From contig CM069137.1 of assembly GCA_035221665.1 (NCBI GenBank), forward strand, positions 76,880,001-76,944,000: 64,000 bases of DNA, written 5' to 3'. Under the pieces are notes generated by a model. The model saw only the letters and a list, made by a program, of their open reading frames with translations, made no database searches and was not told the DNA's origin. This DNA is from Okamejei kenojei. Lineage: Eukaryota. How positions within the stretch are numbered: position 1 is the stretch's first letter; every line of letters begins with the position of its first letter. Both the position numbers and the translations under genes were made by a program. Positions 1-57,400 of the stretch are shown here, one piece after another.

Positions 1-360
1 TTTCAACTGCTGCCTATGTTGCATACTTTTGGCTGGCATAATATTGTGTTTGGCATGTTCATGTTACAGATACGGGTTAGATTTTTTAAATATCTGCAGC
101 GCCCAAACAATGATTACAGCTGAGCTAAATGTTACTCTCTGTTCATAAACATGATGAAAGTATCACAATCATTTTAATTAGAAAGACAGCATGAAACACA
201 TAAAACAACACAAAGTTATGAGTTCTAAAATTACAACAACCATGAAATAAGATTAGCACATAGAAAGGCAACATATTTACAACAAAAATACTTTCCAAAA
301 TAAGATAAATAAATTGTTTATTCAAAGAATGATTCCAATGTAAAATGCCTTCTTTTGTAC

Positions 361-435
361 CTTTTATTGGAGCAACCTTTTCTTTTCGTGAAACTGGCTT
401 CACTTCTTCAGGAATAAACTCGGGAACACCAGACA
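361..435 (-). CDS. TTN: TTN PEVK exon, 75 nt, [25 protein letters not shown]
   Basis: caag acceptor, gtacaa donor, phase 1-1, P/E/V/K-rich. Confidence 0.85.
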
Positions 436-33400: not shown

Positions 33401-36400
33401 TTTGCCTTTTATCTTTGTACCAAGTAACTTCAAAAGGAGATGTACCACTGAATTCACATTGCAGAATGACATCAGAGCTTTTTATTACATCCATTGTCTT
33501 CAGCATTTTATTGAAAACAGGTGGTTCTGGAAGAAGAGCATAAGTTGTATCATTTTTGTATTTATGATGAAATAGTTATTTATAACCAAGAAATCCTTTA
33601 TCATTTGTAACAGAAAATAACTACCTACCTTTGACATTAAGTGCTACACTGCAGCTGACACTTCCAGCTTCATTTTGAGCGTCACAAATGTAATCACCAC
33701 TGTCTTCTACATCAGTATCATTAATTTCAAGAACTGCTATAAAATTATCAAAATGTATTTTGTATTTGTCACCATCTCTGATTTCAGTATCATTCTTGAA
33801 CCATGAAATTTTGATTTCAGGTGTGCCAGTCACTTTGCACTCAAAATGCACGGATTCTCCCTTCTTCAGGACTTTGGATGGTTCCAGCTTCTGGATGAAA
33901 GATGGAGGTTCTAGGAAACCAAAGTACAACACATTTAGTGCTTGAATTACAAGAAGGTTATGTTTTGGAAAGTAGAATTGTGAAATGTGGAAGGAATTTG
34001 AATCATTATCACAAATCATATGAGAATGCTCCAAAAGTTTTGAAAAAGCCCATGTATATTAACTGGAATTTTACTGTATTTCATATAAAGAAAATTTAAA
34101 GAAGAGTATATTATATTACTGAGATCACGAAGAGCACAAAAAGATAATGTAGAATTGATATGATAAAGAGAATAAGATGATTACACAATTAAACTCAAAG
34201 AACATAAGACACTAACATAGAATACACATAAAACAAGATTTGTACAAATTGGAAGACTTGGAATATGAAAAGACATTAACAGCAAATAACAAACAAGACA
34301 CTGATAATATATACCCACACAACAAAGAATTCCACACCTGTTACAAACAATTTTGCTGTACAAGAATCTGTGCCAACATCATTGGTGACATGGCAAGTGT
34401 AATATCCCGTATTAGAATGTTTTACTGAATAAAGTTGCACAAAACTGGATGAAACTTCTGTCACAATGCAACATGTTCCATCAGGATGTAACTCTTTGTC
34501 ATCCTTAAACCATTTGAAAGACAGAGGAGGTGTTCCGTTAGCATCACTCTTGAACAGCACTGTAGAGCGTGGGGGAACCTCCTGTGACATTGGTTTTGTA
34601 ATAAATCTTGGTGGCTCTAAAATTCATTGAAGAAAAACATATTTGTTGCAAGAAAGAGCATAAGTTTCTAAATTTTGAATTTTGAACCATTAATAAATTA
34701 AAAATAGTTATTTCAATCATAAGACATTTAAGTGTTAAAATACGACAAATCTGAGATCTATTTTGCCAAAAGTATGAGGAAAAATGCAAAGGCAGTCACA
34801 CCTTTAACAATCAGTTTGCTACAGCATTCATCAGTTCCTGCTATATTTGATACTCTGCAAGTATAAATTCCACAATCAGCGATTTCTAGTTGATTAATTT
34901 CCAAAGATGAGGTGTTATCTTGCTGTGATAGTTTATATTTATTACTATCCATGATCTCCTTTCCATCTTTATGCCAAAAAATGGTCATTGGAACAGAGCC
35001 AGATACTTTGCACTCCATGCTCACAGAAGAGCCTAGTGCAATGCCCATGTCCTTCAATTTTTTTGTAAATGTTGGAGCAATCAATTGATCTGTACAATAT
35101 AGAACACAACTTGTAAGTTTGAGATGCAAAAGTTAACCTAAAAGAGCAAAGTTGCTTAGATTACTGTATTCTATTTTTCACATACAAATAAAAATACTAA
35201 CCTAATACAGCCAAGGAAGCTTTGCAGCTGTCAACTCCAAATTCATTCTGGACCTCAAAAGTATATTCACCACTATTCGACTTCTCTACCGACTGTATCT
35301 TTAGACTAGCCACATTATTTTCAAAGCTCAATTTACATTTTCTGCTGGATGTGAGCTCCATTCCATCTTTAAACCATTTAACAATTAGATCTGGTGTGCC
35401 TGCCACAGTACACTCCAAAACTGCTGGATTTTGTACAGTTATGTTGCATGATTTTGCTCTCTCAACAATTTTTGCAGGTTCTGTTAAGAGAAAATATTAT
35501 GCTAATTGATGACAGTAATTTAATATTTTAATCCTGTCTTCTTTTTCACATTAGTATGATAAATAAATTTGAAGATAAGTAAATAAAATATTTACACATC
35601 AGCCAATCATATTTGTTAATATTCCTGACCAACCTGTTACTATCAATATGGCATAGGATTTCTCAATCCCTGCGTCATTTTTGGCCTGGCAGATGTATTT
35701 CCCACCATCTTTTGCTTCAACTGCTGCAATTTTCAGCATTGCAAGATTGTTTTCAAAGGAAATTGATGTATTTTCGTCTTCTTTGATATCTACATCATTT
35801 TTCATCCAATTAATTGATAAAGGCTCTGAACCTTTTACAACACACTGAAAGCCAGTAGAATTTCCAACAAACGTTGTAACATTTTCAATCTTCTTCACAA
35901 ATGATGGGGGTTCTAGTTGAAGATAAAGAGGTATACATATAAATATGAATGAAATGCTCTACCCTCTTTCAAAATTATAGTATAATGGCAAAATATGCTG
36001 CTTTATGGAACTGATCATTAAAAAAGTTTAAATTAAATTTACAAGTTAGCTGCTAAAATCGCAATATGCCTACAGTGTTCCATTTTACTTGAAATCGGTG
36101 TATTCCATTTTACTTGAAATACATTCAGTAAAAATGACAAAACATACACCACTACCACCATGTAACTAACCTTTTAAACTGACAATACAACTGCAGGAAC
36201 AGCTTCCCACATCATTGCTTGCTGTGCATTTATATTCGCCAACAAGTGACACATCCACCTTCAAAATATGAAGGCTACTTAAAACATTCTTTGTGATCAT
36301 TTTGTATTTTTCACTTGGTGGAATCTTTTTATTGTCCTTGTACCACACAACGTCAAAGGGACCTGTACCAGCCAACTCACATTCAAGAATAACACCATTG

Positions 36401-39400
36401 TTTCTTATAACCTCAGCAGACTGAAGTTTCCTTCTAAAATTGGGAGGTTCTAAAATCATGGTAAAGAAATCAAAATTAACAAAATCACAGAAACTAACAT
36501 TATCCTTGCTCAATAAGTAGCTGATGTCATTTGTTAGCAATTTGGACATTATTACAGACCTTTAATTTCAACTTCGGTGCTGCAGCTGTCACTGCCTGCT
36601 TCATTTCGTATTTCACACACGTAGTAGGCACTGTCCTCTAGAATCATGTCAATAATTTCAAGAATTGCCACAGAACCATCAAATGATGTTGTATATTTGG
36701 CACTGGCATTAATTTCAGAACCATTTTTATACCAGGAAACTTTGATTTCAGGTGTTCCAGTTACAATACACTCAAAACGTGCTGAGGCACCTTCCTTCAT
36801 TATTGTTGAAGAATTCAGTTTTTTAATGAAACTAGGGGGTTCTAGAAATCAAAATATTATAAATTAAAAACTACATCTAAAGGATATTCAATAGTACTTC
36901 AAACCAATTAAACAATTATAAATAACTGTTTAAACACGATTCACTGCTCAAGTTACTAATTTAAGAAAACCATGTTTTAATATCACAATTAGAGCAAACA
37001 GCATTTTGTTTCTAAATGCTATTAAGATTCCTTCAATGTTTCAGTTTAGTTTATTGTCACGTATACCGAGGTGAAAAGCTTTTGTGTGCTAACCCGTCAG
37101 CAGAAAGACAATACATGATACAATCGATCCATTTACAGTGTAGAGATACAAAACAGAATAACGTTTAGTGCAAAGTAAGGCTAGCAAAGTCCGATTAAGG
37201 ATAGTCCGACGGTCATCAAAGAGGTAGATAGTAGTTCAGCACTGCTCTCTGGCTCTGGATGATTCAGTTGCCTGATAACCGCTGGGTAGAAACTGTCCCT
37301 GAATCTGTAGCTGTGTGTTTTCACACTTCTATACCTTTTGCCTGATGCGAGAGGGGAGAAGAAAGAGTGGCCAGGGTGCGCAAGTGATTATGCTGCTGGC
37401 TTTGCTGAGGCAGAGTGAGGTATAAATGGAGTTAATAGAAGGGAGGTTGGTTTATGTGATGGTCTGAGCTGTGTCCACAATTTGCTGGAATTTCTTGGGG
37501 TCTTAGATGGAGCTGTTCCCAAACCATGCATCCCGATAAAATGCTTTCTATGGTTCAACAGTGGGAGTGGGGCAATCTCGTAAAATTTCTTCAAAATTGT
37601 CATCATTGGCACTTTAGGATTGGATGGTACAATTAAATTACAGTGGACACTGTCTAATTTGCCAGTTTTCCAAAAATTAAACATTATATATTAGTATTCC
37701 CCAACATTGGTATGGTGCGTTGCCTTAGTTAACAGAAAAATGTGTAGTGTGGCATGATATAGAATAACAAATATAAAAAACTCAATTCTTTAAGACTACC
37801 ATACCTCATTCTCTCAATGGACAGCAGTGCAATATACTGCCACTTAAGTACAGTAACCCTCAAGAAAAAAAAATCTAAACATTCAAGGTGGTAAAGCAAG
37901 AACAACTGTTTTGCATATATCAAAACAGGAGAACAAAGCCATAATTGCGCACCTTTAACAAGCAGGTTTGCAGAACAGGCATCTGTACCAACATCGTTGC
38001 TAATTTGGCAGGTATAATTACCCGCATCCGATATTTTAGCTGAGGGCAATTCTAGGAAATATATCGAGCCTTCATTCCAAATAGAATATGCCATACTATG
38101 CATCAATTCTCTGTCCCCTTTGAACCATTTTGTGGATAGTGGTGTGCTTCCTTTTACAACACCTCTAAATTGCACTGAAGAACCAAGTACAACATCCTGG
38201 GGCATTATTTTATCTGTAAAACTTGGGGGCTCTAAAAAAAAATCAATAAAAAATGTTTGATTAACTCAGGGTTATATATATATATATATATATATATACT
38301 GGATAAAATGTTCAGATTATCGTTAAATTTATGAATTACATAGCCTTAAAAAGTGTAAGAATGCTAAACAAAATTTAGAATTGGTGGATTCACTTATTTA
38401 AATACTTCACTACTGCAGCTAATGACAAATGCAAACTTTTTTGTAAAGAAAGCCAATATTTGCTTTTCATACAGATGAGAAAGAAATGCGACAAAGGAAT
38501 ATTTCAAACCTTTTACACTTAAGACAGCACTGCATTCATCTTTTCCTGCTGAATTTGCTGCTTTGCAAGTGTAAATTCCATCATCTGAGAAGTCTAGTTC
38601 AATGATTTCTAATGAAATTATGTTCTCTTGAAATAGCATTTTGTATTTGTTACTAGCTGGTATTTCGTTGTCCTCTTTGTACCAAGCAATGCTCATTGGT
38701 ATAGAACCAGAAACTTTGAATTCCATTCGCACTAAAGATCCTAAAGTACTGCTTATGTCCTTTAATTTCCTTGTTAACAATGGAGGAATTATTTGTTCTG
38801 TTCATATAAAGGGACAAATAAAAAACGTTAACGTTTTTTGTGTCAAATATTACAAAGTTTGTGATAGTATTTTGTGATAGTAATAGTTCCAGTATTTTTT
38901 GATGAAAAAAAAAGATTAACAAGAAGTAATCACTGACCTAATACAGTCATAGGAATATTGCAGCTGTTAGCTCCAAACTCATTCTGGACTTCAAAAGTAT
39001 AGTCTCCACTGTCATCCATTTCAACAGACAAAAATTTTAACCTGGCTATCTTATTTGCAAAACTCAATTTATATCTTCTATTTGACTCCAGTTGTTTTCC
39101 ATTTTTGAACCATGCAACATTTAATACTGGAGTACCAGCTACGGTACATTCCAAAATTGCTGGGTTTCCTGAAGTCACTGTGAGTGGCTCCGTTTTTTCT
39201 ATGATATTTGCAGGTTCTGTGGAAAAATTACAATATTTACATATTTAATCAAATTGCTTTTGTAAGCTAATACATTTTAGCAGCGCATGCTGTCAATAGA
39301 TGGGATTCCTCACAACAAATTAGGACCAATGTAATCTTGCATTCTTGCTGAAGGTGTATCGTATTAAATTAGATTTAGCAATCCCAGTCAAGATGCTGGC

Positions 39401-42400
39401 AGCATTGCACTGATTGTACAAATTTAGCCTTAACCGGATAATCAGTTATCAATCTCATTCAGAAACACACTTAGAAACATAGAAAATAGGTGCAGGAAGA
39501 GGCCAGCACCGCCATTCATTGTGATCATGGCTGATCGTTGCCAATCAATAACCCGTGCCTGCCTTCTCCCCATATCCGTTGATTCCACTAGCCCCTAGAG
39601 CTCTGTCTAACTCTCTCTTAAGTCAATCCAGTGATTTGTCCTCCACTGCCCTCCATGGCAGGGAATTCCACAAATTTACAACTCTCTGGGTGAAAAAGTT
39701 TTTTCTCACCTCAGTCTTAATGGCCTCCCCTTTATTCTAAGACTGTGGCCCCTGGTTCTGGACTCTCCCAACATTGAGTACATTTTTCCTGCATCTACCT
39801 TGTCCAGTCCTTTTAAAATTTTATATGTTTCTATAAGATATCCCTTCATCCTTCTAAACTCCAGTGAATACAAGCCTAGTCTTTTCAATCTATCCTCATA
39901 TGACAGTCCCGCCATCCCAGGGATCAATCTCGTGAACCTACGCTGCACTGCCTCAATCACAAGGATGTCCTTCCTCAAATTACTTGAGGAATAAGAAACG
40001 ATTGCCTCTTTGATACAATGGCAGTGCTCTTTTGAAGATTTGATGATGATTGATTGGGTATAGAGAATTAGAAATGAAACAATATTCTACTTATTATGAT
40101 GCTGCATCCAGTGCTAGTTGCTCAACGTGGAAATGTCCCATTTCCAGTTATAACATTCCTCACTTTGTTGCGCACTATTTAAGTTTCTTTAGAATAGTTT
40201 TTGTGGTAATATAAATTCCATGAAATGTGTATTATGCAGATAATACTTGTATTTATAATTTCTTACTAACCCATTACAATCAAAGTAGCAAAGCATTTTG
40301 TTGTTCCTGCATCATTCTTTGCCTGACAAATATAATTTCCATTGTGATTTTCCTCAGCATTAATGATCTGCAATGTGGCAATATTATTTTCAAAGGAAAT
40401 TTTTATATTTTCATCTTCCTTGACACGTTTGTCATCTTTTTTCCAACTTGTATTTATGGGTCCTGATCCTCTTACTTGACATTGAAACACAGCTGAATTT
40501 CCAGAAAATACTGTTGCATTTTCTATTGTTTGTATGAAGGTTGGTCGCTCTAATTTGAAAAAAATATCTTGTTATATTTAAACCATGATTGAAAAAAAGT
40601 TAGTATTACTTAATAAGTAATTGTTAATGAAATGAATAACATGCAATATCCAAGAAACTCGAATAAGGACATAACTGACCTTTCAAACTGACTGTAGAAC
40701 TGCAAGAACAACTTCCCACATCATTTTTTACAATACACTTGTATTCGCCAACATCTGAGGTATCAGATGTTAGAATGCAAAGGCTGACTAAAGAAATGTC
40801 GGAGATCATTTTGTACTTTTTACTGCGACGAAGTTGTTTATTGTCCTTATACCACAAAATTTCAAAGGGACTTGTACCAGCCACCTCACATTCAAGAGTA
40901 ACATCACTAGATTTAACTACCTCAGCAGGTTCAAGCTTCTTCACAAATGTAGGAGATTCTGAAGAGTAAACACGATAATATAGTTTACAAATCACAGGGG
41001 CCTAGGTTCAGGTTTACAAAATGATTCCCAACAACAACCATTGAAGCAAAAGTCCGAATGATTTTTATTTTAATGTGTTAGGAATAAGCTACAGCTATCA
41101 TTCAACGTGGATTAATAAAATGTAATAGGCTTGTAACTTTTGTGCTTCATACATATCCACAACTTTAAAATAATATTTAGCCATATCAGTTTTTCCTCAG
41201 GTGTCCATGAATCTAATCTTCAATATAAATTAGTTAGGGAAGGGTACGGATACAAGTGCAAGAATTTGAATATATATCATATCAGACAACAGGAAACTAA
41301 TGATGCAAGTGAATAAATATTGCTAGGAAAATAGCAATGTCAAGAGAATTTAAACATGTTTCTATATAGGTACAGAATAAGTGGGAGAGCTCCTTCTGCC
41401 CCAATAAAGAAAGTCTTGGTCTCCAAGTGAGGGCTTTCTACTTAACCAGCAGAGGTCCAGAAATTAAATTCAGTCTTTAGGAGTCAGTTTTCGAACATTC
41501 TATTAAAATGAGTAGATATAGGTTCACAAATCAATTGTCAAGCTGTTACTTTTAATGCCCATTTCAAATAGCAGAACAGTCAGTGTTTTAAATAAAGGTT
41601 CTAATTGAACAAAAAGGTGAAACATGACGGGAAAGACTTATTGATCAATCATGGAAAATGAAAATGGGAATATTTACACACCTTTAACAGTGACCATAAT
41701 GTCGCAAGATTCACTGCCAGCTTCATTTTGGGCTTTGCAGGAATAATTCCCAGTGTCATCCAAGTTTACATCAGCAATCTCTAAAATTGCCACCGAATCA
41801 ACAAATGTCATTCTGCATTTTTCATCGATACTAATTTCACGATAATTCTTGAACCAAGCTACTTTGATTTCAGGTGTGCCAGTTACTTTACACTCAAAAA
41901 TTGTTGTCTCTCCTTTTTTTAATATTGCTGTTGGATCTAACTTCTTAATAAAATATGGAGGTTCTGTTAAAAAAAAGTTATTACAAATCATAAAACATAT
42001 TAAAATACAAAAAAAGCCATTCAACATAACAAACAGTTTAGACATATAAAACAAAAAAGAATGAAAGACAATGCACAGCACAAAAGGAACATTAATAATT
42101 TTTTTTTAAATCACAAAACATATTAAAGACAAGTTCCTGCACACAATATTCAAAATCATTCCACAATGGTTAAACATGTAAAGACAAATTGCACACCTTT
42201 TACAAAGAGTCTTGCTGCACAAGTGATACTGCCAACTTTGTTGCTGACTTCACAAATATAGTCTCCTGAATCAGAAACTTTGGCTGAAAACAACTCAAGT
42301 AAACTTGTTGAGCTTTCATTTAAAATGAAACAATCAGCTCCGGACATCAATTCCCTGCCATCTTTCAGCCATTTAATAGTTACTGGAGAAGTTCCTGTGA

Positions 42401-45400
42401 CAACACTTCTAAAATGCACTGTAGAACCAGGTAAGCTTTCCTGGGACATAGGTTTTTCTATAAAACTTGGAGGCTCTGAAAGTCAGGTGGAAAAAAATAC
42501 AATTGGTTCCCAAGAGTACATTGTTTATACTGCATTGTATATTAAAAAAAAAGTTACTAATAAAATAAGAAATTACAATAATTTGCAATCACATTTTAAG
42601 CTCTAAATATAGTAGCTTTCCTTAGAGTAAGAGGCAAAAATCAAAAAAATTAAGTGTATAAATACAAAAAAGATATAAATTATGCTGGAAACAAATTCAT
42701 CTTTCAAACCTGTTATATTTAAGAAAGCACTGCATTCATCACTTCCCACTGAATTGGTTGCTTTGCAAATATAGGTTCCATGATCTGAAATCTCTAGTTG
42801 ATTCACTTCCAAAGTTGTTGTGTTATCTTGAGATAATATTTTGTATTTCTCATTAGTTGTTATTAAAATGCGATCTTTATACCATGAGAAGCTCATTGGA
42901 AGAGAACCAGAAGCTTTGCATTCCATTTGTATGAAAGACCCTAAAACACTGTTCATTTTGCGTGATTTTCGTTTAAACAATGGGGGAATTAGTTGATCTG
43001 TCCAAGGTAAAATGATAAAAGCACAGCCAATCAATTCATACAGCAAATATTAAAATTAATCAAAATCTATAATGATTTTTAAAGTTTTAAGAATTATCAT
43101 GTGTATTGATATATTGATATGATATATATAGTGACTACTGAGAGCCAAAATTAATTTCAAAATTTCTCACAGCAGTTGCTCTTAGATATCCCATTCATCA
43201 CTAATTTCCAATTGGAAAGTTATAACATTATCTTTATATAAATTTGTGTTTTATGCGATTGCGATTTCCTTATTTAAAAGCCATTATTTTAAATGCATTA
43301 GTTATGTAGATTAGCTGACTTCCAATTGTAAATAAAATACTAACCTAATACTGTCAATGAAGCTTTACAACTGCTCATTCCAAACTGATTCTTGACTTCA
43401 AAAGTATATTCAGCAGTGTCATCATTAGACACAGAAGAAATCTTTATGCTGACCACATTATTCTCAAAGCTGATTCTGTGTTTTCGACAAGACACCATTT
43501 CGTTACCATCTTTAAAACATTTAACATTTAGTTCTGGTGTACCAGTTACAGCACATTCCAGGTTTGCTGTATTTCCTGCCGTCACACTGATTGACTGTGC
43601 TTGTTCTGTGATTTTTGCTGGTTCTATGAGAATAAAAATCTCTTTTATATATCATTAGCATTAATTTCATTTTGGTCAATGCATGGCAAAATACCTGAAT
43701 TGAATTATAATGATAAAAAAATGGAATGCAGGGAAATAACAAGCTATTAATTGCCCACTGACCTGCTACCAACAATGTGGCAAAGCACTTCTCAGTTCCT
43801 GCGTCATTCTTGACCTGGCACATGTACTTTCCAGCATGATTTTCTCCAACAGCATTTATTTGAAGAGTAGCAATATTATTCTCAAAAGACATAGTAATAT
43901 TACCATCTTCTTCGATAACATCTTTATCTTTCATCCAAGTTAAATAAATAGGCTTTGAGCCTTTTACTTGACTGTGAAATACAACTGAATTGCCTGATAC
44001 TGATGTTATATTTTCAATCTTCTTTATAAATCCTGGGGGTTCTAGTTTAAAATAAATAATAACATGACTAAATTGAGCTATATCACCTTTTCATGACAGT
44101 TTACAAATAATTCAGCGTTGAATTTCCAAATAAATAATTAAATGATTCTGCCATCATCATACACTTCAGAAGGAAATATTTTCTGATGGACTTGTAAAAC
44201 TGACCTTTCAAACTGACTGTAGAACTGCAGGAACAACACCCCACATCATTTTGTACGATGCACTTGTATTCACCAACATCTGTGGTATCAGAATTTAGAA
44301 TGCAAACGCTAACTAAAGAACTGTCAGAGATCATTTTGTATTTTTTACTACGTCGAATTTGTTTATTGTCTTTATACCACATAACTTCAAAGGGAGCTGT
44401 ACCAGCCACCTCACATTCAAGAGAAATATCAGTGGATTTAACTATCTCAGTGGATTGAAGTTTTCGTCTAAAGCTTGGTGGTTCTAAAAAGTAATCACAA
44501 TAAAAAACATCTTAATGAATCAAGATACTATCAGTATCCCTGAACAAGAAAGTAAAGAATTTATAGTCTCAATTAATTATTACAGACCTTTAACTTCAAC
44601 TTCAGTGCTGCAGCTCTCACTACCAGCTTCATTTTGTGCCTCACAGATGTAGCACGCACTGTCGTCCAGAATCACATCAATAATCTCAAGAACTGCCACA
44701 GCATCATCAAATTTCATCATAAACTTTTCACTGGCCATAATTTCATCGCCATTTTTGTACCATGTAACTTTAATGTCAGGTGTGCCCCTTAAACTGCACT
44801 CAAAATGTGCTGAAACTCCTTTTTTTAGGATGGTTGGCGATTGCAGCTTTTTAATGAAGCTTGGAGGTTCTAAAAGCCAAAATATTATAAATTTCAACAT
44901 ACATTTATACGGTAATCAAAACCAACTCAAACGAATGTGTATGCATAAATCATTGGCCACAAAACTCTAATCAAATTCTCCAAACCTACTCAAATTGAGC
45001 CCCCTCTTAAGTCAGGGAAACAATATTCTTTTTTTCATGTTCCCCATAACTGCATCCAGTAAAATTGTTTATTACTCAGTCATGTGATGTGATACCAGGC
45101 TATAAGAATCCTTAAAATCTCCATCAATGTCTTTACTTTCACTGAGGAAAATTTTCCTTTGTGTTTCCTGAAGCAAGACAGAATTCTCCACCACTAAATC
45201 GTGCTTTATCTTGCAGTTAATGGGAAAACTCCAGGACTTCCTTGACAGCAGGACAGCATTGAGTCTGACAATCAACTGACATTTGAATGCCACAAGGCCA
45301 CCAAGCCCACTTCTTTCTTGCAAGTATGCATTTCTTTGGCAATATCCAGTCAACCATCAGGAAGATAAAATAATGTTGTTGAACGTACGAGGTAACAAAC

Positions 45401-48400
45401 ACCGTCAAGGAAACAAAATAACGTAACTAAATTTTCAAGGTAACAAAGCAAAAAAAAAAAAAAAAAATTATACAACTCACAACAGAGTGTAAAATGCCAG
45501 AATTGCGCACCTTTAACAAAGAGATTTGCAGAACAGTCATCAGTACCAACTTCGTTGCTAACTTGGCAGGTGTAGCTACCCGCATCAGATATTTTGGCTG
45601 AGAGCAATTCTAGAAGGTATGTCGAGCCTTCATTCCAAATGGAATATGCCACACCATGCATCAATTCTCTGTCCCCTTTGAACCATTTTGTGGATAGTGG
45701 TGTGCTTCCTTTCACAACACCCCTAAATTGTACCGTAGAACCGAGTATAACTTCTTGAGACATTATTTTATCTATAAAGCTTGGGCGTTCTAAAAATCAA
45801 TTAAAAAAGATTCAATTAACTCAGATTCAAATCTTTCCAAATTAGATGCACTAATACTTTTTTTTAAAAGTCTAAGCATTTTTAAAATAAAGATAGATGG
45901 TTAATTAATTTATTTAACTACTTCAGTACTTTGTCAAACTACATATAGAAACTCTTTGTAAAGAATGTATTTTTACAAAGAATGTATTGTAAAGAATGTA
46001 TTGTAAAGAAGCAACTATTCAAACCTTTTATACTCAAGACAGCACTGCATTCATCCTTTCCTGCTGAATTTGCTACTTTGCAAACGTAAATTCCACCATC
46101 TGAAAAGTCTAGTTCACTGATTTCTAATGAGATTGTGTTCTCTTGAAATAGCATCTTGTATTTGTTACTAGCTGATATTTCTTTGTCCTCTTTACACCAA
46201 GTTATATTCATTGGAATAGAACCAGAAACTTTGCTTTCCATTCGCACAAAATACCCTAAAGTACTGCCCACGTCCTTTAATTTTCTTGTAAACAACGGAG
46301 GAATTATTTGTTCTGCTCAACATAAAGAAACAAAATGATAAAAAAAAACAATGATGTACTTCTAGCTTTGTAATACACTATGGCAATCAAAAGATATAAG
46401 AGACAAAACATCAACACAATTTGCATACTGACCTATCACGGTCAAAGAAATATTACATTTGTTGGCTCCAAACTCATTCTGGACTTCAAAAGTATAGTCT
46501 CCACTGTCGTTTATGTCAACAGACAAGATTTTTAGACAGGCCACCTTATTCACAAAACTCAATCTATATCTTCTGTTTGTTTCTAGCTGCTTTCCATTTT
46601 TGAACCATGCAACATTTAATACTGGTGTTCCAGCTACTGTACATTCCAGAATAGCTGGATTTCTTGAAGTTACTGTGAGAGGCTCAGTTTTTTCTGTGAT
46701 ATTTGCAGGTTCTGTGGGAAAAATATATTATTTACATCAAAAATTAAGCAATAGTTTTTGCAAGATTATGATAATAAATTTTGTGGAGAATAGACATCAC
46801 TGTGGATTTGTAGGTCTCTTGAAGGTTCAAATCCTCAAATCTAGATAATACTACGATGATAAATGTTTCTACTACATGCTGACTGAATGTGTTCCTTGGT
46901 AATACATTCACCATACAGTGCCTCACAAAACAGATATTATAGGGAAAATAATAAAATAACAAACTATTATATTGGAAGCACTTTTACTAAGATTTGTCAA
47001 TGGCATGTACAAGATAAGAAGGACCTACATTCCAAATATTGCCAAGCAACCTAGTAAATGGCTACTCTATATGGCAAATGTTCCCATTGTTAACCATAAT
47101 ATAACATATTTACTTTAATATTCACATAATTCATTCAAAAATTGTAATGATTTTACTGTGAGAAATACTCAAATCAAAATCAATAATTTGTGGGCAATAT
47201 TTATGTTTATAATTTCCTACTAACCCATTACAGCCAATGTGGCAAAGCATTTTGCTGTTCCTGCATCATTTTTTGCCTGACAAATATAATTTCCACTGTG
47301 ATCTTCTTCAGCCTTGATGATCTGTAATGTGGCCATATTGTTTTGAAAGGAAATTTTAATATTATCATCCTCTTTGATACGTTTGTCATCTTTTCTCCAG
47401 CTTGTAATTATAGGAACTGAGCCTCTTACAAGACATTGAAATACAGCACAATTTCCAGAAAATACTGTTGCATTTTCTATTGTTTGCACGAAGGCTGGTC
47501 GCTCTAGTTTAAAGTAAAGAGAATATACCAGGTTATAACTTAAAATGAAACTACTGATATTTAATCTTCTAAAATATTCTACTTTAAAACATAGAATATT
47601 ACATAATTAAATAAATAAATACCAAACAACATCTAGTTAAGATTTCGTCTTAGAACTGACCTTTCAAATTGACTGCAGAACTACTGGAACAACTTCCCAC
47701 ATCATTCTTTACCATGCACTTGTATTCCCCAACATCCGAGCCATCAGATGTTAGAATGCAAAGACTGACCAAAGAACTGTCAGAGATCATTTTGTATTTT
47801 TTGCTTCGCCGTATTTGTTTATTGTCCTTATACCACAAAACTTCAAAAGGAGCTGTACCAGCCACCTCACATTCAAGAATAACATCACTGGCTTTAACTA
47901 CCTCAACAGGTTCAAGTTCCTTTGTAAATGTGGGAGGTTCTGAAGAGTAAACATGATATCATGATTTACGAATCACAGTCCACTTTTTTCCAAGTTTACA
48001 CAATGTCTCTCGTAAAAAGCCATTGGCAGCAAGAATGTTACAATGCATAAACGATTAAAATAGCAATTTGATGATCTCTGGAGCAGCATGCCCATTGCAA
48101 CTGCCAATTAATAAATGCAATAGCATAATACTGCTAAGTCTGAGGTGAAGCACCTTGGAAGGGCTAATAAAGGGCAGGACATATGGAATGCAATGAAAAT
48201 ACCTGATGGGAGTACTAAAATAGAGAGATCTCAATGTACAAATCTAAGGATTCTTGAAGTGGCATATTTAATACTTGGGTTCATTAACTAGGACATGATA
48301 CAAGAGCAGAGATATTTTGTTGGAACTGATTAGGCCCCAGCCAGAGCAGAGGCACAGTTCTGGTGCATTGCTATCTAAGGGATACAATTGCATTGGGGAT

Positions 48401-51400
48401 GGAGCAGAGAAGATTGACAGAGATGTTGCTTTGGATGGAGTGTTTCAGTTATGAAGACAATGAATAGATTTATGTTTTCTCTTCCTTGGAGCAAAAGAGG
48501 CTGGGATGTAGGGGTTGATAATTATGTTCAATGTTATGAAGGGCATGGATTGGATAAATAGTAGGACATTTTTCACATAGCAAAGTTATATAAACTGCAG
48601 AGGTAAGAGTAGGTGGAACCTGGCTTAGTGGAGGCAAGTACTCTCACTCACTGTAATGTATCTAGATTAGCTAAAGACCAAGTGCTGTTAAATGAAATTA
48701 TATTGATACGTAAAATTGGCTTGACATGGCGGACCGGGGTGCCTGCTTTATGGTTCTATGACTAATTTTAAAACAAAATTAAGAAAAGGAACTCCTTTTG
48801 GCCTCCAAAGAAACTCTGAGCCTCAAAATTCATGGATGGGATACCCATAACTCAAAATATGACAAGGCACCAACTATGTATAGTTTCTATGTATAAAACC
48901 ATCTATATCTCTAGTTTCCCTTTCCCCTGACTCATTCTGAAGAAGGGTCTCGACCCGAAACATCACCTATTCCTTTTCTCCAGAGATGATGCCTGACCCG
49001 CTGAGTTACTCCAGCATTTTGTGCCTCTCTTAGGTTTACCAGAATGATGATTGGATTCGAGGGTTTCAGCTGCAATGAGAGGTTTTGTGCCCAACTTTGG
49101 CAAATCACCTAAAGGTCCAGAAGTTATGTATTCAAGAGAGAGTTGAATATAGCTTTTAGGGGTAACGGAATCAAGTGATATGAGGAGAAAGCAGGAACGG
49201 GGTACTGATTCTGGATGATCAGCCATGATCATATTGAATGGCGGTGCTGGCTCGAAGAGCCGAATGGCCTACTGCACCTATTTTCTATGTTTCTAACTCA
49301 GAAGTCTGGACTGCTTCAGCCAGCTTCCTATTGATAAATCAATTTTTTTTTTAACATTATAGAAAATATTAATGTCATATTTTATGGATCCATCGGAATC
49401 AAAAATGAACAATTAGATGATAAATGTACCAATCAAAAATGTATAAGAATCAGCTCCTTATGTCAAGGTTCGCATTATTCCTTAATTAAATGTTTTTGCA
49501 ATATGACTGGAAAAAGATAGTGGACCAATGATAACATATAACTGAGAATGTTTACACACCTTTAACTGTGACTGCAATGTCACAAGATTCACTGCCAGCT
49601 TCATTTTCGGCTTTACAGGAATAATTCCCTGTGTCATCCAAGCTGACATCAACAATCTCTAAGAATGCCACAGAATCAACAAATGACATTTTATATTTTT
49701 CATTGAAACTAATTTCATGTTGATTCTTGAACCAAGTGACTTTAATTTCAGGTGTGCCAGTTATTTTACACTCAAAACTTGCTGTATCTCCTTTTTTAAA
49801 TATTGCTGTTGGTTCTAACTTCATAATAAAATATGGAGGCTCTGTGGAAAACAACGTTGTAAATGTAACTATACATACAAGTGTCCAAGATGAATCCATT
49901 CAACATAAAGAAAACCACGTGGACAATGCAAAAAGAACAAAAGAAAACACGAACGAAAGAACAAAAGCACAAAAAAAGAATAAAAATAACAAAGAGAAAA
50001 TTATATAACAAATCAAAAAGTTAATTTGGTTAATTTCACAATGGTGAAACAAGCACAGATAAATTGCACACCTTTGATAAAGAGTCTTGCTGCACAAGTG
50101 ACACTGCCAACTCTGTTGCTGATTTCACAAATATAGTCACCCGAATCTGAAACTTTGGCTGAAAATAACTCAAGTAAACTGGTTGAGCCTTCACTTAAAA
50201 TGAAACAATCAGCTCCAGACATCAGTTCCCTGCCATCCTTCAGCCATTTTATAGTTACTGGAGCTGTTCCTTTCACAACACTTCTAAACCGCACCGTGGA
50301 ACCTGGTAAGCTTTCCTGAGACATAGGTTTTTCTATAAAACCTGGAGGCTCTGAAAGTCAGGTAAAAAAAAAACACCATTGCAATTTTATGAAGAAAGGT
50401 TAAAGGTCAGATCTAAAATTAATTAAAATAAACTGCAAGCAAGTTTAAATGCTTTGCATGTTAATTTTTGTTGCTATGGTAGCAAACAAACATCAAAAAA
50501 TGTAAAGCCATATAAATATGAATAAGATGTAAACTGAGCTGAAAGTAAATTAAACTTTCAAACCTGTTATATTTAAGAAACCACTGCTTTCATCACTTCC
50601 AACTGAATTAGTTGCTTTGCAAATATAAGTTCCACGATCTGAAATCTCTAGTTGATCAAATTCCAAAGTCGTTGTGTTATCTTGATATAATAGATTGTAT
50701 TTTTCACTAGATGTTATTAATTTGAAATCCTTATACCAAGAAAAGACCATTGGAAGAGAACCAGAAACTTTACATTCCATATGCACAGACGATCCTAAAA
50801 CAATGTCCATTTTCCGTAATTTTCGTGTGAACACTGGAGGAATTAGTTGATCTGTCCAAGATACCAAAAGCACAGCTGGTCAACTCAAAGAGCAAATGCT
50901 TTAAATTAATTAAACCAATTGTTTTTTTGTTCCTAGTAAGAAACTTTTGTATGTATTAGCATGTTTCAATAACGCACTCAAATAAAACCCCAAAACAGCT
51001 GATGTTCATTAGCCCACTATTATGGAACATGGAATTTGCAATCATCAATGACCATCATCATTGCTAACTGCCATACAACATTTTGGATTTGTTTATTGGA
51101 TTTCCCACACAAGAGTATTCAGCTCATTCCCTTATGGCGACACTCTCCATGACAGCAAATCTATGGTGATGCAATGGGATTGCATTAGAGAGTGGAACCA
51201 AATAGCCTTACCCACCGAAAAGCTTGAAAAAAATTGACAGCTGGCTATGCCTCATTCTTGGCTTATTAAGTGCCAATTGTTAAACAGTTTTGCTGAATGA
51301 TGCGGAGGTATAGAAACAATCATAAATATATATTTTTTTAAACTACTGAAAAGCTTTTCAAACTTTAAAACTGTTAAATATTTTAAAATGCAAAAAATAA

Positions 51401-54400
51401 TTTAAGTTTAAAGAATGAATCTGCCTAAAATACTCAAATAGATTGCAATATATCAATTACCTCAAATACCTCACTCCTTCAATGTTTCTCGATTGAAATT
51501 ATTGAAGGGAATATTGAATTTCCCTTCAATAATTTCAATGGAGTAACATTGCCTGTGTCTCCAGGCATATATTCAATTTAAAAACAACTGTGAATTGCTG
51601 ACTCCAAATGTGAGGACATGCATCTCTGTGTGGAAATCACAAAGTTGCCAATAGTTATTATCGAGGAGAATGTGGATGTGGGGTATTACAAAGACCATGG
51701 CGATCAATAAACCGTATGAAGACAAAAGAGCATGCTGCTGCTGGAATCTGGAGCAACATTGTGCATTTCTCGTGAGTACCCAACTGGGAAGCTCTGATCT
51801 TGGCAGAGCTTGGAAGGGAGACCATCCAAGAATACCAGTGTAATAGCCTTAAGGGCCTGTCCCACTTGGGCGTCATTTGCGCTTCACGCAGATGGCGCGT
51901 GAAGATTTTGTACATACCAAATTCCTGGGGCACCGCGCGTCACTGCCTACGTCACCACGCGCGTCATGCGTCGTGACGCGTTAATGATGACGCGTAAATT
52001 ACACGCAAATGACGCCCAAGTGGGACAGGCCCTTTACTGCCTGGACAGTTGTGAGAACTAACCAACATGTTCGATTCAGAAAGAATCTGTTATATAGTGT
52101 TTCCAAAAAAAACTACAGCCTTTATATTTTCCGATGATCAATGTGAGCACAAGTTCATTAGTTTTAAGCAAAATTTCAATTGGCACTAAATTATTTAAAT
52201 TAGTCAAATTCAAATAGCAAATAAAACACTAACCTAATACTGTCAATGAAGCTTTACAGCTGCTCATTCCAAACTTATTCTTGACTTCAAAAGTATATTC
52301 ACCAGTGTCATCATTAGAAACAGAAAGAATCTTCAGGCTGATCACGTTATGATCAAAGCTGATTTTGTGTTTTCTGCTAGACACCATTTCATTGCCATCC
52401 TTAAAACATTTAACATTTAGTTCTGGTGTACCAGTTACAGTACATTCCAGGTTTGCTGTATTTCCTGCTGTCACACTGAGTGACTGTGCTTGTTCAGTGA
52501 TTTTTGCTGGTTCTATGAGGAAAAATAAATCTCTTCAATATGTTACTAAAATTAATTTGACTTTAGTTGATGCAGTTCAAAATAATCTGAACTCACCACT
52601 GATTAAAATGGAAGCTAACCAATATCCCACTGACCTGCTACCAACAATGCGGCAACGCACTTCTCAGTTCCTGCGTCATTCTTGACCTGGCATGTGTATT
52701 TTCCAGCATGATTTTCTCCAACAGCATTTATTTGAAGAGCAGCAATATTATTCTCAAAAGACAAAGTAACGTTACCATCTTCTTGGATAATACTTCTATC
52801 TTTCATCCAAGTTATGTAAATAGGCTTTGAGCCTTTTACTTGACATTGGAATACCACTGAATTGCCTGACAATACGGTTATATTTTCAATCTTCTTTATA
52901 AATCCTGGGGGTTCTAATTTAAAACAAAGGATTATAAAACATGAATTTTCATTTCAGCTTTTCATTATGGTGTTGAAATGTTTTAATCCAATAGTAAGAA
53001 TTCCTTCAAAAATAATTGAGCACTGGATTTAAATAGAAGAAAAATATATTTCCACAAATACAATAACTAACCTTTCATACTGACTGTAGAATTGCATGAG
53101 CAACTTCCCACATCATTTTTTACTGTACATTTGTATTCAGCAACATCCGAGGTATCGGGTGTTAAAATGCAAAGATTGGCTAATGAATTGTCTGAGAACA
53201 TTTTATACTTTTTGCTGCGTCGAATTTGTTTATTGTCCTTATACCACATAACATCAAAGGGAGCTGTACCAGTCACCTCGCATTCAAGAGTAATATCACT
53301 AGCTTTAGTTATCTCAACAGATTCAAGTTTCTTTACAAATGAAGGAGGTTCTGAAGAGTAAAAGATAACAATGTGGCTTAGAAAACAATCAAATGCCAAA
53401 GAGTTCAATATCTCTTTAAAATATTGCTTTACACACCTTTAACCTGAATCACAATGTTGCAGCTGTTAATGCCAGCTTCATTCTGTGCTTCACATGAGTA
53501 ATCTCCACTATCTTCCTCCTTTACATCAGCAATCTCAAGAACTGCCAATGAGTTTTGGAATGATATTGAATATTTGTCACTGGTTCTAATATCTTGGTTA
53601 TTTCTATACCATGTTACTGTGATTTCAGGTGAACCAGTAATTTTGCACTCAAAACGTGCAAATTCTCCTTGCTTCAGAGTTGATGAAGAAGGTAATTTTG
53701 TAACAAAGGTCGGAGGCTCTGAGAAATGAAAGGTAGCACACTTGAATAGTGGAACTACAAAGTCAAATAAAGTAGACAAAGTATATGGAATCACCTTCTG
53801 GTAAACGTTACTCATCTTTGAGTGTAAGAAAGCTAAGGATCAATAACAGCGTTAAAAATGTAACACAGAACCTATTTACTAATGAAATTAACAAACCTTT
53901 GATGATAACATTTGCAGTACTATTGACTGAACCAGCTTCATTGGCGAGTTGACAGTTGTAAACACCGGCATCAGTAATTTTGGTAGAAATTAGCTCAAGG
54001 AAGTGTGTTGTTTCTTCATTCCAGATCGAACATCTTGTGCCAGGTTTCAATTCCCTATTATCCTTAAACCACTTAACAAATAGTGGAAGAGTTCCTTTCC
54101 CAATGCTTTTAAGCTGTAGCGTAGAACCAAGCACAATATCTTGGGACACTGGCTTTTCTATAAAGATCGGTGGTTCTAAAAGTCATTTAAAAAAATGTTA
54201 TTTAGTAAGATCAACAGAAGTAAAAATACTAATACTTCTAAAATTAGTTATACTACTCTAACACTTTGTTACTGAACACATAGTCAAAATATTTTAGGAA
54301 GTTGAATATGTATAATTTATCTATATTGAAAAGAAAACAAAGAAACTGACAATATTGGGAGAAATATTGATTCCCCCACCCAGGTTTCACTGCATATCCA

Positions 54401-57400
54401 TACTAATTTGTCCGGATGTGGAAAACATAACTTGCTGGCCTGATTCATCTGAGACTCCACTGGCATTGTTTGGATGATAGCAAAGCCGCCAATGCTTCAT
54501 GAAAAGTCAGCAAAAGCCCACTCTACAGCTCTGCCATCAGTAAAAGTCAAATATGACTAAATAGTTTTGAGCTGTTTACAGAAAGATTAAAATAAATTAA
54601 AAAAAATAAAAACATTAAAAGATATCTGGGAGATAATAAAGGTATTAAGCTAACATTAAGTAATCAAGTAACTCAGTCAATTTGCCTTCTAATACAAAGT
54701 CTTTCAAAGCTCATTAAAATTACAGAGTCTCGGGTCCTGCGTTCATATGGAGTCCAGAGCAGAGTGAACCATCACATTTGGATTTACGATTATTTAAACA
54801 GATAAATGCAGTGATTCTGGGCCTCTGTTTTTAGCCAACACAAGTTTCAGCCTATTTAAACAAAACAAATTAGCACAGAAGTTGATTAAAATAAGGGTAT
54901 CTTCAAACCTTTTACAGTTAGAAATCCACTGCATTTACTACTTCCAGCAGCATTTGTAGCTTTGCAAGAGTAATTTCCACCATCAGTGATTTCAAGTTCT
55001 TTGATCTCCAAAAATGCAGCATTTTCTTCAAATGAAGTATTATATTTGTGACTAGTCATTATTTCTGTGTTATCTTTGTACCAAGATATGCTGATTGGAA
55101 GAGAACCAGATACTTTGCACTCCATGTGCATTAAGGATCCCAAATTAGTATCCATTTTCTTTAAACTTTTTGTAAAAGATGGAGCAATTATCCGATCTGT
55201 ATAACACAGAACAAAATTAAAATCTTGAAACATCCATTGTAAGATTTTTGAGTTATCCTCCCAATCAGAAACTGGATGGTAAAAGAATTAAAATATAAGA
55301 GGTGGAATGTGCGACCGCTTCTTACGTCTACTGCAGAGCAGAAATGTGTGTCAACTGGTGTAATGTCATTTCTGATCTCATGATACACTGGTAATTCAAT
55401 GTAATACCATAAGCTATTGAGCAGGAGATGTGGTAAACATGCTCCACTCAATAACACTTGAATGATGAGCACAATTGTGACAGTACTGATCATTATATAC
55501 ACAGTAAACCTTCTCTGGAACGGACCATCGGGAGGGGGGGGCATGAAGTCGATTATTGCCAATTCTCTGTCATAATCGAGTAAGGTGTTAGAATTATATG
55601 TAGTTGAAGCACAGAACTGCAGATGATGGTTAACACAATAAAGAATGCAAAGTGCTGGAGTAACTCAGCAGGTCAGGCACAGATAAGTGATATCAAGACC
55701 CTTCTTCAGACAGATTCAGTCTGCTGAGTTACTCCAGCACTTTGTGTTCCTTCACCTTAAAACTAGGTGCCGATACCACTATTCTACACCAGCAAGCCCT
55801 TCTTCAATGGTTTATTGTGGCTCATGTTGTAGCCCCTGGGTGCAGCCCTCTCTTCAGGATGCTGCCAATGACAATAAAAGCTCAATAAACGCTTCTAATG
55901 TGGGGATGTCAGCGACTCCAAGGAAGAAGGAGAAGGAGGTCTGGGGTGAGGGCGGGGGGTGTTACAGAGAGGCCGAGTAGACAGAGCGATGGAAGTAGGA
56001 AGCAGCGGTTGTGCAGGGAGCGGACATAGCCAACGCCAAATGGAAGAAGCAGCTGCAGGTGAGAGGGGAGTGAGCCCCATGGTGAACGAGCGTGTTCCTG
56101 TAGGTGGCGGCGGACTGAAGAAAGCACTGTTCCCAGGGCTACATGAGCTGCAACAACAGCAGTATCACCCGGACCACGTGGTGGGTGAAGAAGGGCTTAC
56201 GTCAGACAGGGACCCTCGGAAACCTGTGCTCTAGGCAGCTGGGTAGGCGGTGCGAGTCAGGGGTCTGTCCTCTAAAACCGAAATCCGCTAAAATGAGGAT
56301 TTTGGTTATACATTTTGTGTGGATTTAGAAGACAATACAAGTTGAATACATAAATTTGATTTAAAAGTATTTAAAGTATAATCTTCTTAAACTGTCTTAA
56401 AATTATACTGAACCCTTTCAGCTGCTATTATAAAATGTACTATCAATGATTTCAACACATAGAAAATCACCAACCTAGCACTGTCAATGAAGTTGTGCAG
56501 CTGCTGTGTCCAAACTCATTCTGTACTTCAAAAGCATATTCCCCTCTATCATCCTTATCAACAGCCTGTATCTTTAGGACTGCCACCTTATTCAAGAAAG
56601 TCACTTTATATTTCCTGCTGGATGCCAATTCATTTTGATTCTTGAACCATCGAACTTTCAGTTCTGGAGTACCAGCAACAACACATTCCAAGATTGCCAT
56701 TGTTCCTGAGGTTACACTTAAAGGCTCTGGTTTCTCTACAATTTGTGCAGGTTCTGCAAGAAAAACCATACATTCTCAATTGATGACGTAAAAAAAAATA
56801 TTTTCTCTTGAACTCATCATACATGACTGAAATTGACAAAGGTTAAGTGCATCATACCAACCTGTTACTGCCAAAGTTGCAAAACACTTCTCAGTTCCTG
56901 CATCATTCGAAGCCTGACATGTGTACTTTCCACTATGATTTGATTCAATAGAAGCAATGTGCAGTACAGCAATACCATTCTCAAAAGATATCTTAATGTT
57001 TTCATCTTCTCTGATTTCATCTTTGTCCTTCATCCATGTGACATATATGGGAGTTGAGCCTTCTATTTGGCTGTTAAAACTGGCTGAATTTCCAGACAAT
57101 GTGGTAACATTTTCAATCCCTTTCACAAAGGAGGGTGGTTCTGATTTAGAGTTAAGAATTGTGTTAATTCGATGTAAGAATCAGACTCTCAGCAACTATG
57201 CATGTTACAGCCATAAAATCAAGTAGCAATGAAATCCAAAATGGATATATTAAAAATATGAAAATATAAAATGGCTGGCATTTAATAACTGACCTTTTAA
57301 TCTGACTACAGCAGCACAAGTACAACTTCCCACATCATTTGTTGCTTCACACTGGTATTCACCAGCATCTGAATTATCAACTTTCTGAATAAAAAGACTA

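Follow-up and report, generated by a model that had tools for sequence, protein, structure and literature searches.

How does a row of exons that already repeats with a period of six come to repeat with a period of 12? The question is raised by a 64,000-nucleotide (nt) stretch of the genome of the ray Okamejei kenojei (assembly GCA_035221665.1, contig CM069137.1, positions 76,880,001 to 76,944,000; hereafter the window), the minus strand of which carries a long series of immunoglobulin (Ig) exons that we identify from their sequence as part of the titin (connectin) gene. A first-pass annotation had described a recent tandem duplication of 12 exons, that is, of two 6-Ig super-repeats, between 36430 and 53330. 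The duplication is there, but it is not recent. We propose, with a probability of roughly 70%, that it is a single old event, which arose in ray titin by in-register crossing-over between exons after sharks and rays had separated.

Duplication of twelve exons

Exons are named by domain class (A to J), following PMC12241362 (Hanashima et al. 2025, which we cite throughout from the part of its text that was searched), and by repeat numbers assigned in this analysis. The 11 coordinate pairs of the first-pass annotation all proved to be the low ends (donor side) of minus-strand Ig exons of 279, 282 or 288 nt, in phase 1-1 and bounded by AG and GT. In the order of transcription, the pairs and their nt identities are C3 (52635..52913) and C5 (43763-44041), 91%; D3 (52234..52512) and D5 (43345-43623), 92%; E3 (50564..50851) and E5 (42710-42997), 85%; F3 (50072..50350) and F5 (42197-42475), 90%; A4 (49560..49841) and A6 (41682-41963), 88%; B4 (47661..47939) and B6 (40680-40958), 87%; C4 (47225..47503) and C6 (40271-40549), 87%; D4 (46433..46711) and D6 (38938-39216), 86%; E4 (46025..46312) and E6 (38510-38797), 89%; F4 (45511..45789) and F6 (37953-38231), 87%; and A5 (44588..44869) and A7 (36560-36841), the most diverged, 77%. 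Their mean identity is 87.2% nt (range 77.0-91.8) and 81.8% in amino acids (aa), compared with 70.7% nt for the region's 17 pairs at offset 6 and 65.3% nt for 21 other offset-12 pairs, from which the junction rows B3-B5 and B5-B7 were excluded. In 11/11 pairs the partner 12 exons away was closer than that six away, as had been claimed.

The introns were copied along with the exons. Both of the flanking motifs quoted in the first-pass annotation were found exactly twice in the window and at the places given, ctgaaagtcaggt at 42476 and 50351 and attattacagacc at 36548 and 44576. When 60-nt intron ends were aligned and scored against shuffles (local alignment of whole intron cores being too insensitive), z exceeded 3 at 16 of the 24 ends of the 12 duplicated intron pairs, and at 1/216 other ends of the same class, compared at offsets 6-24 (Mann-Whitney p=2.5e-9). 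The copies are therefore collinear and head-to-tail, introns included. Pairwise identity matrices gave the exon order xyx'y', a 12-Ig repeat of higher order superimposed on the 6-mer. Had there been two separate tandem duplications of six exons, the order would have been xx'yy'; that reading was rejected.

Copy 1, which is 5' in transcription, runs on the minus strand from 53320 to 44450 (8,867 bp) and comprises the 3' part of B3, exons C3, D3, E3, F3, A4, B4, C4, D4, E4, F4 and A5, and the first ~30-40 nt of B5. Copy 2, from 44450 to 36420 (8,034 bp), comprises the remainder of B5, exons C5, D5, E5, F5, A6, B6, C6, D6, E6, F6 and A7, and the first ~30-40 nt of B7. Together they span about 53320-36420, so that both the bounds and the unit length of 8-9 kb first reported for the duplication were accurate.

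Some observations on single exons belong here. The A5/A7 pair, which adjoins the seam, shows 77% nt and 69% aa identity, compared with 85-92% nt in the other ten pairs, and has 11 copy-specific residues in common with the ray Mobula; faster early change and escape from conversion are candidate readings of its excess divergence. Exon E4 is preceded by a tandem acceptor (gagcag, 46315-46312), and alternative splicing at this site could lengthen the exon by one codon. In D3 (52512-52234) and D5 (43623-43345), as in their Mobula and sawshark orthologues, cysteine stands in place of the canonical core tryptophan of the Ig C strand; in the 10-Ig repeat, the E domain (32360-32073) has tyrosine there. 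Such a replacement may make for a mechanically weak or redox-sensitive domain.

The seam

The twelfth position of the unit, which had no pair in the first-pass list, is occupied by a chimeric exon. B5 (44205..44483, minus strand) encodes an in-frame Ig domain with a B7-type 5' end and a remainder of the B3/B4/B6 type; the crossover parents would be B3 (53072..53350) upstream and B7 (36171..36449) downstream, both on the minus strand. Against B6, the first 7/7 informative sites of B5 are B7-like and afterwards 11/59 (change-point permutation p=0.0006); against B3 the figures are 5/5 and 21/65 (p=0.039), and against B4 the change-point p is 0.013. The control exons B4 and B6 showed no switch (p 0.91 and 0.98). 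These informative-site tracks place the putative crossover at 44443..44457, exon nt 27-41, just 5' of the stretch where the B exons are most similar. At the protein level, residues 1-10 of B5 agree with sawshark B7 at 10/10 positions, and residues 14-92 share 75-84% identity with B3/B4/B6 and 58% with B7. The adjoining introns differ in the same way. Intron A5-B5 (44484..44587, 104 nt) is homologous to A7-B7 (z 3.0 and 4.3 at its two ends) and not to A3-B3 (2.1, 0.5), and the 3' end of intron B5-C5 (44042..44204, 163 nt) is homologous to that of B3-C3 (z 3.9; 5' end 1.1) and not to that of B7-C7 (-1.0, 1.3). B5 contains a second switch at exon nt 131-137, from B3-like to B6-like (12/20 B3 sites before, 1/18 after; p=0.005). 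A5 was also considered as a chimeric exon and ruled out, as it is A7-like over its whole length.

The B-class exons of repeats 3-6 (53350-53072, 47939-47661, 44483-44205 and 40958-40680) are homogenised, with 80-87% nt identity even at offsets 6 and 18, and a tree of B domains (residues 14-92) does not resolve B3-B6. Exons B3, B4 and B6 have a common acceptor ending in ttactcttcag, and sawshark B3 and B(y) are 80% alike. From their sequences, B exons look like partners in exchange and like a hotspot of recombination or conversion.

Age of the duplication

The pooled synonymous divergence (dS) between the copies is 0.33, with a ratio of nonsynonymous to synonymous divergence (dN/dS) of 0.29; between the older 6-mer repeats dS is about 1. 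The exons have diverged by 13% nt, are intact and are under purifying selection. Of the duplicated intron cores, 1/12 pairs passes the local-alignment threshold; paired introns differ several-fold in length (for example 1382/347 and 1620/723 nt), and the copies carry copy-specific repeat insertions. Both copies are spanned by Mobula gene models, namely P0276 (M. birostris, C3-A4), P0163 (M. hypostoma XP_062908157.1, D4-A5) and P0001 (XP_062908156.1, F5-C7). At the six positions covered by all four sequences, 27 site patterns support orthology between the window and Mobula, 6 unite copies within a species and 2 are crossed. A tree uniting the two Y copies of the window was rejected by the approximately unbiased (AU) test (p-AU 4e-5); for the two X copies, with fewer Mobula data, p-AU was 0.068. 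A dS of 0.33, intron cores that mostly cannot be aligned and the presence of both copies in Mobula together mean that the duplication is neither recent nor a haplotig join. The near-identical copies, alignable introns and confinement to one species that would mark a recent duplication or copy-number variant were not what we found, and on this sequence evidence the duplication is old, and young only by comparison with the 6-mer repeats, which are older.

In the comparison with other chondrichthyans suggested in the first-pass annotation, both copies occur in Mobula and the sawshark model has one. Sawshark model P0381 (Pristiophorus japonicus, 2,246 aa) has the order A3-B3-X-Y-A7-B7, with one X and one Y, and so lacks the 12-mer; it is about equidistant from the two ray copies (80.5 and 81.9% aa). 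In trees, the window domains cluster with Mobula to the exclusion of sharks. In a tree of concatenated C-D-E-F-A units (19 rows), sawshark, Heptranchias and Mustelus fall outside both duplication nodes with starred support of 98/95 and 95/90, and five distinct trees with sharks inside gave p-AU of 0.018, 0.023, 0.038, 0.017 and 0.052. All B domains, being homogenised and chimeric, were omitted from the concatenated tree. The trees also omitted the first, truncated B(y) of the sawshark, one member of each pair of its near-identical internal duplicates, and Mustelus P0375 and P0364; unnamed protein matches at ~55% identity or below were not used. Judged from branch lengths, with no clock test, the event lies at 76-86% of the distance from the tips to the shark-ray split, which is put at 259-265 Ma (million years ago) or older in the available parts of two reports (10.1101/2024.05.27.594570; 10.1101/2025.02.26.637739). 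With moderate support from these trees, the duplication would have occurred once sharks and rays had split but before the lineages of Mobula and this species separated, at roughly 200-260 Ma.

Neither full-length shark or ray titin, nor whale shark titin, nor elephant shark titin past B2 was found in word-index protein searches reaching at most 2,000, 4,510 and 671 residues; a full-library protein search returned none longer than 7,754 residues among the 150 matches listed. The titin middle-Ig region is often fragmented and misnamed in shark and ray annotations, and P0276, P0354 and P0375 are middle-Ig fragments annotated as peroxidasin homolog, roundabout homolog 3-like and myosin light chain kinase-like, respectively. 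Sawshark P0381 contains a six-exon internal repeat of its own (residues 474-1050 and 1052-1619) in the shifted phase F-A-B-C-D-E, with its first B exon truncated. The two copies are 99-100% identical in aa at the five complete positions compared, and may either have arisen very recently or be a false duplication introduced in assembly.

Origin of the duplication

Because B5 switches parent inside the exon and its flanking introns follow different parents, we hold with confidence to the mechanism taken by itself, namely unequal crossing-over between Ig exons twelve apart. The seam lies within homologous sequence, in register, and is a chimera of both boundary elements, as such a crossover demands. 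We propose that two chromatids mispaired by two super-repeats and that a crossover inside a B-class exon would have joined the first 9-13 codons of B7, in register, to the remainder of B3. The 12 exons between B3 and B7 would thereby have been duplicated with frame, splice sites and 6-domain period kept, the chimeric B5 being left at the seam, and the 3' half of B5 would later have been converted by a B6-like exon.

The sequence of the seam points to unequal homologous crossing-over and not to a transposon or a non-homologous join. For the 6-Ig gains of other cartilaginous fishes a transposon has been proposed (PMC12241362), and a transposon-mediated or non-homologous intronic join, followed by gene conversion which alone made a mosaic of B5, would be a possible origin here too. 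Introns of both copies do contain interspersed repeats (about 39470-39980, 48930-49300 and 51845-52040), and the homogenised B-class exons 3-6 (80-87% nt) show that conversion does act. An intronic join, however, would leave B5 entirely of one type, whereas the switch is exonic and in codon register and the seam introns, of 104 and 163 nt, each track a different parent. Moreover, the 104-nt A5-B5 intron is too short for an intact transposon, and no interspersed-repeat match was found at the outer boundaries or at the seam in a comparison of the window with itself (no repeat library was searched). We therefore regard such a join as very improbable. Lower still do we rate an assembly artefact or a very recent copy-number variant, in which two haplotypes or alleles were joined. 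A repetitive array is open to this suspicion, but an artefact or a very recent variant leaves next to no room for a dS of 0.33, 13% nt exon divergence, several-fold differences in intron length, copy-specific repeat insertions, or both copies in Mobula with shared copy-specific residues; the first-pass annotation had likewise argued from the divergence of the copies against an artefact.

The other alternative concerns the date. The same crossover might have occurred earlier, just before the shark-ray split, in which case the eight 6-Ig repeats of the whale shark would stem from the same event, a crossover in the reverse direction would have removed one copy from the sawshark lineage, and the date would have been blurred by gene conversion early in the history of rays. 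Eight is indeed also the number inferred for this ray, and a shared older event would explain the whale shark count simply (PMC12241362). The mean identity between paralogues (81.8% aa) equals that between shark and copies (80.5 and 81.9%), conversion among B exons is observed, and one of the five trees with sharks inside is borderline (p-AU 0.052). When the A domains are taken by themselves, sharks tend to group with copy 2, at unstarred support (79/74, 74/71), and neither tree is rejected. On the other hand, the concatenated tree puts three sharks outside both duplication nodes with starred support, and Mustelus Y as sister to ray copy 2 was rejected (p-AU 0.017). The first exons of the sawshark are equidistant from both copies (83/83, 85/85, 78/79 and 84/84), whereas loss by crossover predicts that they should be copy-1-like. 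We consider the older date unlikely.

These points in favour of an older date weigh against the single crossover after the shark-ray split that we prefer, and so do others. Of the polarised sites, 9 unite the two ray copies, and 5 and 3 place sharks with one of them. The proteins compared are all fragments of predicted gene models; those that supply the Mobula copies are drawn from two species, and that of the sawshark has a disrupted B exon and contains a near-identical repeat of its own. The change-point p-values at the seam are uncorrected across the seven comparisons run. Finally, the 3' half of B5 is nearer to B6 and B4 than to B3, so that a simple two-parent crossover model needs the later conversion.

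Gene context

Splice-site calling gave 58 one-Ig exons at 15630-63996 on the minus strand, where the open reading frames (ORFs) form a series of ~95-residue Ig units without stops. The exons measure 279-291 nt each, are bounded by AG and GT in phase 1-1, and are stop-free and in frame in 58/58 cases; identity among them peaks at period 6. This visible part of the titin middle-Ig segment (15630..63996) consists of 4 exons of repeat 1, 6 full 6-Ig repeats, a 10-Ig repeat (33910-27568), 2 extra I-J-K units and 2 C-terminal domains. It is followed at 10100..12106 (minus strand, approximate ORF bounds) by an N2A segment, with an Ig exon, the unique UN2A helix region and further Ig exons, and by PEVK-like exons below ~3700. 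The labels N2A and PEVK are in part our assumption; the UN2A exon (11531-11292) matches titin fragment 7NIP in a PDB search (E 1.7e-18). Exons A5 and J1 have titin 3B43 as their best PDB match (E 1.5e-86 and 5e-113), at its 4th and 3rd domain, respectively. We take 3B43 to be I65-I70, and if so these positions fit the A and J classes. Domain order agrees with bichir and arowana titin models except for the extra repeats. By its sequence, the gene is titin, read on the minus strand from the I-band middle-Ig segment into N2A and PEVK.

Elephant shark model P0013, which stops at B2, has one more 6-Ig repeat 5' of repeat 1 of the window, and this ray therefore probably has eight. Eight repeats minus 12 exons make six, the elephant shark count in PMC12241362. 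Counting 11 domains inferred upstream of the window, the middle-Ig domains of this ray would total 69.

Other repeats in the window

A 3-Ig unit comprising I, J and the next domain, which we call K, is triplicated at 16732..28292 on the minus strand (units 28292-25651, 24656-21870 and 18891-16732). The copies share 85-86% nt identity with dS of 0.32-0.34, the same as in the 12-mer, and from these values the triplication would be about as old. Its seams are intronic and lie in the K-I introns, the 5' end of which resembles the K3-L intron and the 3' end the H-I intron. Whale shark and elephant shark each have one 10-Ig repeat and two closing domains (PMC12241362), and hence no I-J-K triplication; chondrichthyan sequence covering I-J-K was not found in the protein searches made here.

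PEVK-like short exons at window positions 143-3741 have a spacing of ~1 kb (353-526, 1382-1587, 2396-2487 and 3590-3784; 70-82% nt identity), which suggests another tandem exon duplication. In the F-G intron, a ~149-nt unit occurs in two tandem copies, 83% identical (29488-29783). At least two interspersed repeat families are present in the introns of the window, for example at 9314-9705, 13212-13675, 16177-16320, 19088-19416, 22976-23413, 39469-39981, 49126-49296 and 61098-61591, with further repeats at 7389-7479, 21164-21246, 25306-25406 and 48931-49031. One of the families presumably is LINE-like (long interspersed nuclear element), with reverse-transcriptase remnants. A near-perfect 128-nt palindrome (27293-27420) is built from one interspersed repeat family.

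Function and significance

Tandem Ig domains straighten at low stretch, with ~4-4.5 nm per Ig domain, and isoforms that include more of them have a spring that is longer and softer. Twelve extra Ig domains (about 50 nm) would lengthen and soften the I-band spring of skeletal muscle when spliced in. In elephant shark, the middle-Ig segment is found in skeletal and not in cardiac titin (PMC12241362). That the exons are intact and conserved suggests that they are used.

Adjacent domains are on average 31.6% and at most 44.2% identical (57 pairs), and domain pairs at least 70% identical occur at offsets 3 (6 pairs), 6 (6), 12 (11) and 18 (1). Near-identical neighbouring domains misfold, according to the consulted part of PMC4660218. 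All gains observed in the array leave adjacent domains at most 44% identical, in line with avoidance of misfolding, the three-domain unit placing domains of 72-83% identity only three apart. Crossover in multiples of six automatically keeps neighbours dissimilar, so that the pattern need not have been selected.

A wider scenario can be sketched, though we doubt that all of it will hold. The titin spring of elasmobranchs may have grown repeatedly and independently by Ig-exon crossing-over, in units of 12, 6 and 3 and in shifting phase. Rays may have gained 18 domains in one early burst (the 12-mer and I-J-K), reaching ~69, with the eight repeats of the whale shark separate and the sawshark duplicating six exons now. 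Selection for softer fin muscle of longer range, during the evolution of pectoral-fin swimming, might have favoured the ray gain. The implied middle-Ig totals are 63 for whale shark, 53 for human, 51 for elephant shark and 33 for zebrafish, all of which ~69 would exceed. Equal repeat counts, such as eight in whale shark and probably eight in rays, need not be homologous. Multiplication of super-repeats has been guessed at before and, in the literature searched, not read from a breakpoint. The present duplication is young enough to retain its seam, a probable exon-to-exon crossover with a hybrid Ig domain, and through this one chimeric exon the mechanism becomes checkable across shark and ray genomes. 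It is not a new class of element and should interest specialists in muscle proteins and in the evolution of repeats.

Comparison with known systems

The closest parallel is found in the 6-Ig repeats of cartilaginous fishes, of which elephant shark has six and whale shark eight, compared with three each in human and zebrafish (Hanashima et al. 2025, PMC12241362). Those gains concern the same gene, the same middle-Ig segment and the same A-F classes, and they too add 6-Ig repeats. They are described as coming in six-domain blocks, with the proposed transposon left untested, whereas the ray unit is 12 domains in one step, with an exonic breakpoint, and is seemingly ray-specific; no ray was studied there. 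The text searched of PMC12241362 makes no mention of a 12-Ig unit or an exonic breakpoint, and nothing on a titin 12-Ig unit or on ray titin was found in the literature searched, the scope of which did not extend to subscription papers.

In the 10-Ig triplication of tetrapods or mammals (PMC12241362), duplication of a multi-exon block likewise lengthens the tandem-Ig spring while neighbours stay dissimilar. Alligator model P0007 has three such 10-Ig units. The triplication differs in its unit, which comprises classes A-J, in its lineage, and in its copies, which look much older. We know of no mapped breakpoint for it.

Tandem duplication of several exons in a giant sarcomeric gene is also seen in the nebulin triplicate region and, in human TTN, in a nine-exon PEVK triplication (the latter cited in PMC12241362). 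The copies in these two cases are near-identical and a few million years old or less, whereas the ray 12-mer has a dS of 0.33, is shared as a fixed feature between genera and codes for Ig domains. In mechanism, the ray event resembles the haemoglobin (Hb) Lepore and anti-Lepore type of fusion, in which unequal crossing-over (non-allelic homologous recombination) takes place between paralogous coding sequences. In each, homologous coding sequences cross over in register and leave a hybrid at the junction; the proposed ray event, unlike the Lepore type, would have taken place within one gene, between exons that are ~70% identical today and twelve exons apart. Block duplication in titin was thus already known, and it is the 12-Ig unit, its lineage and its exonic seam that appear to be new.

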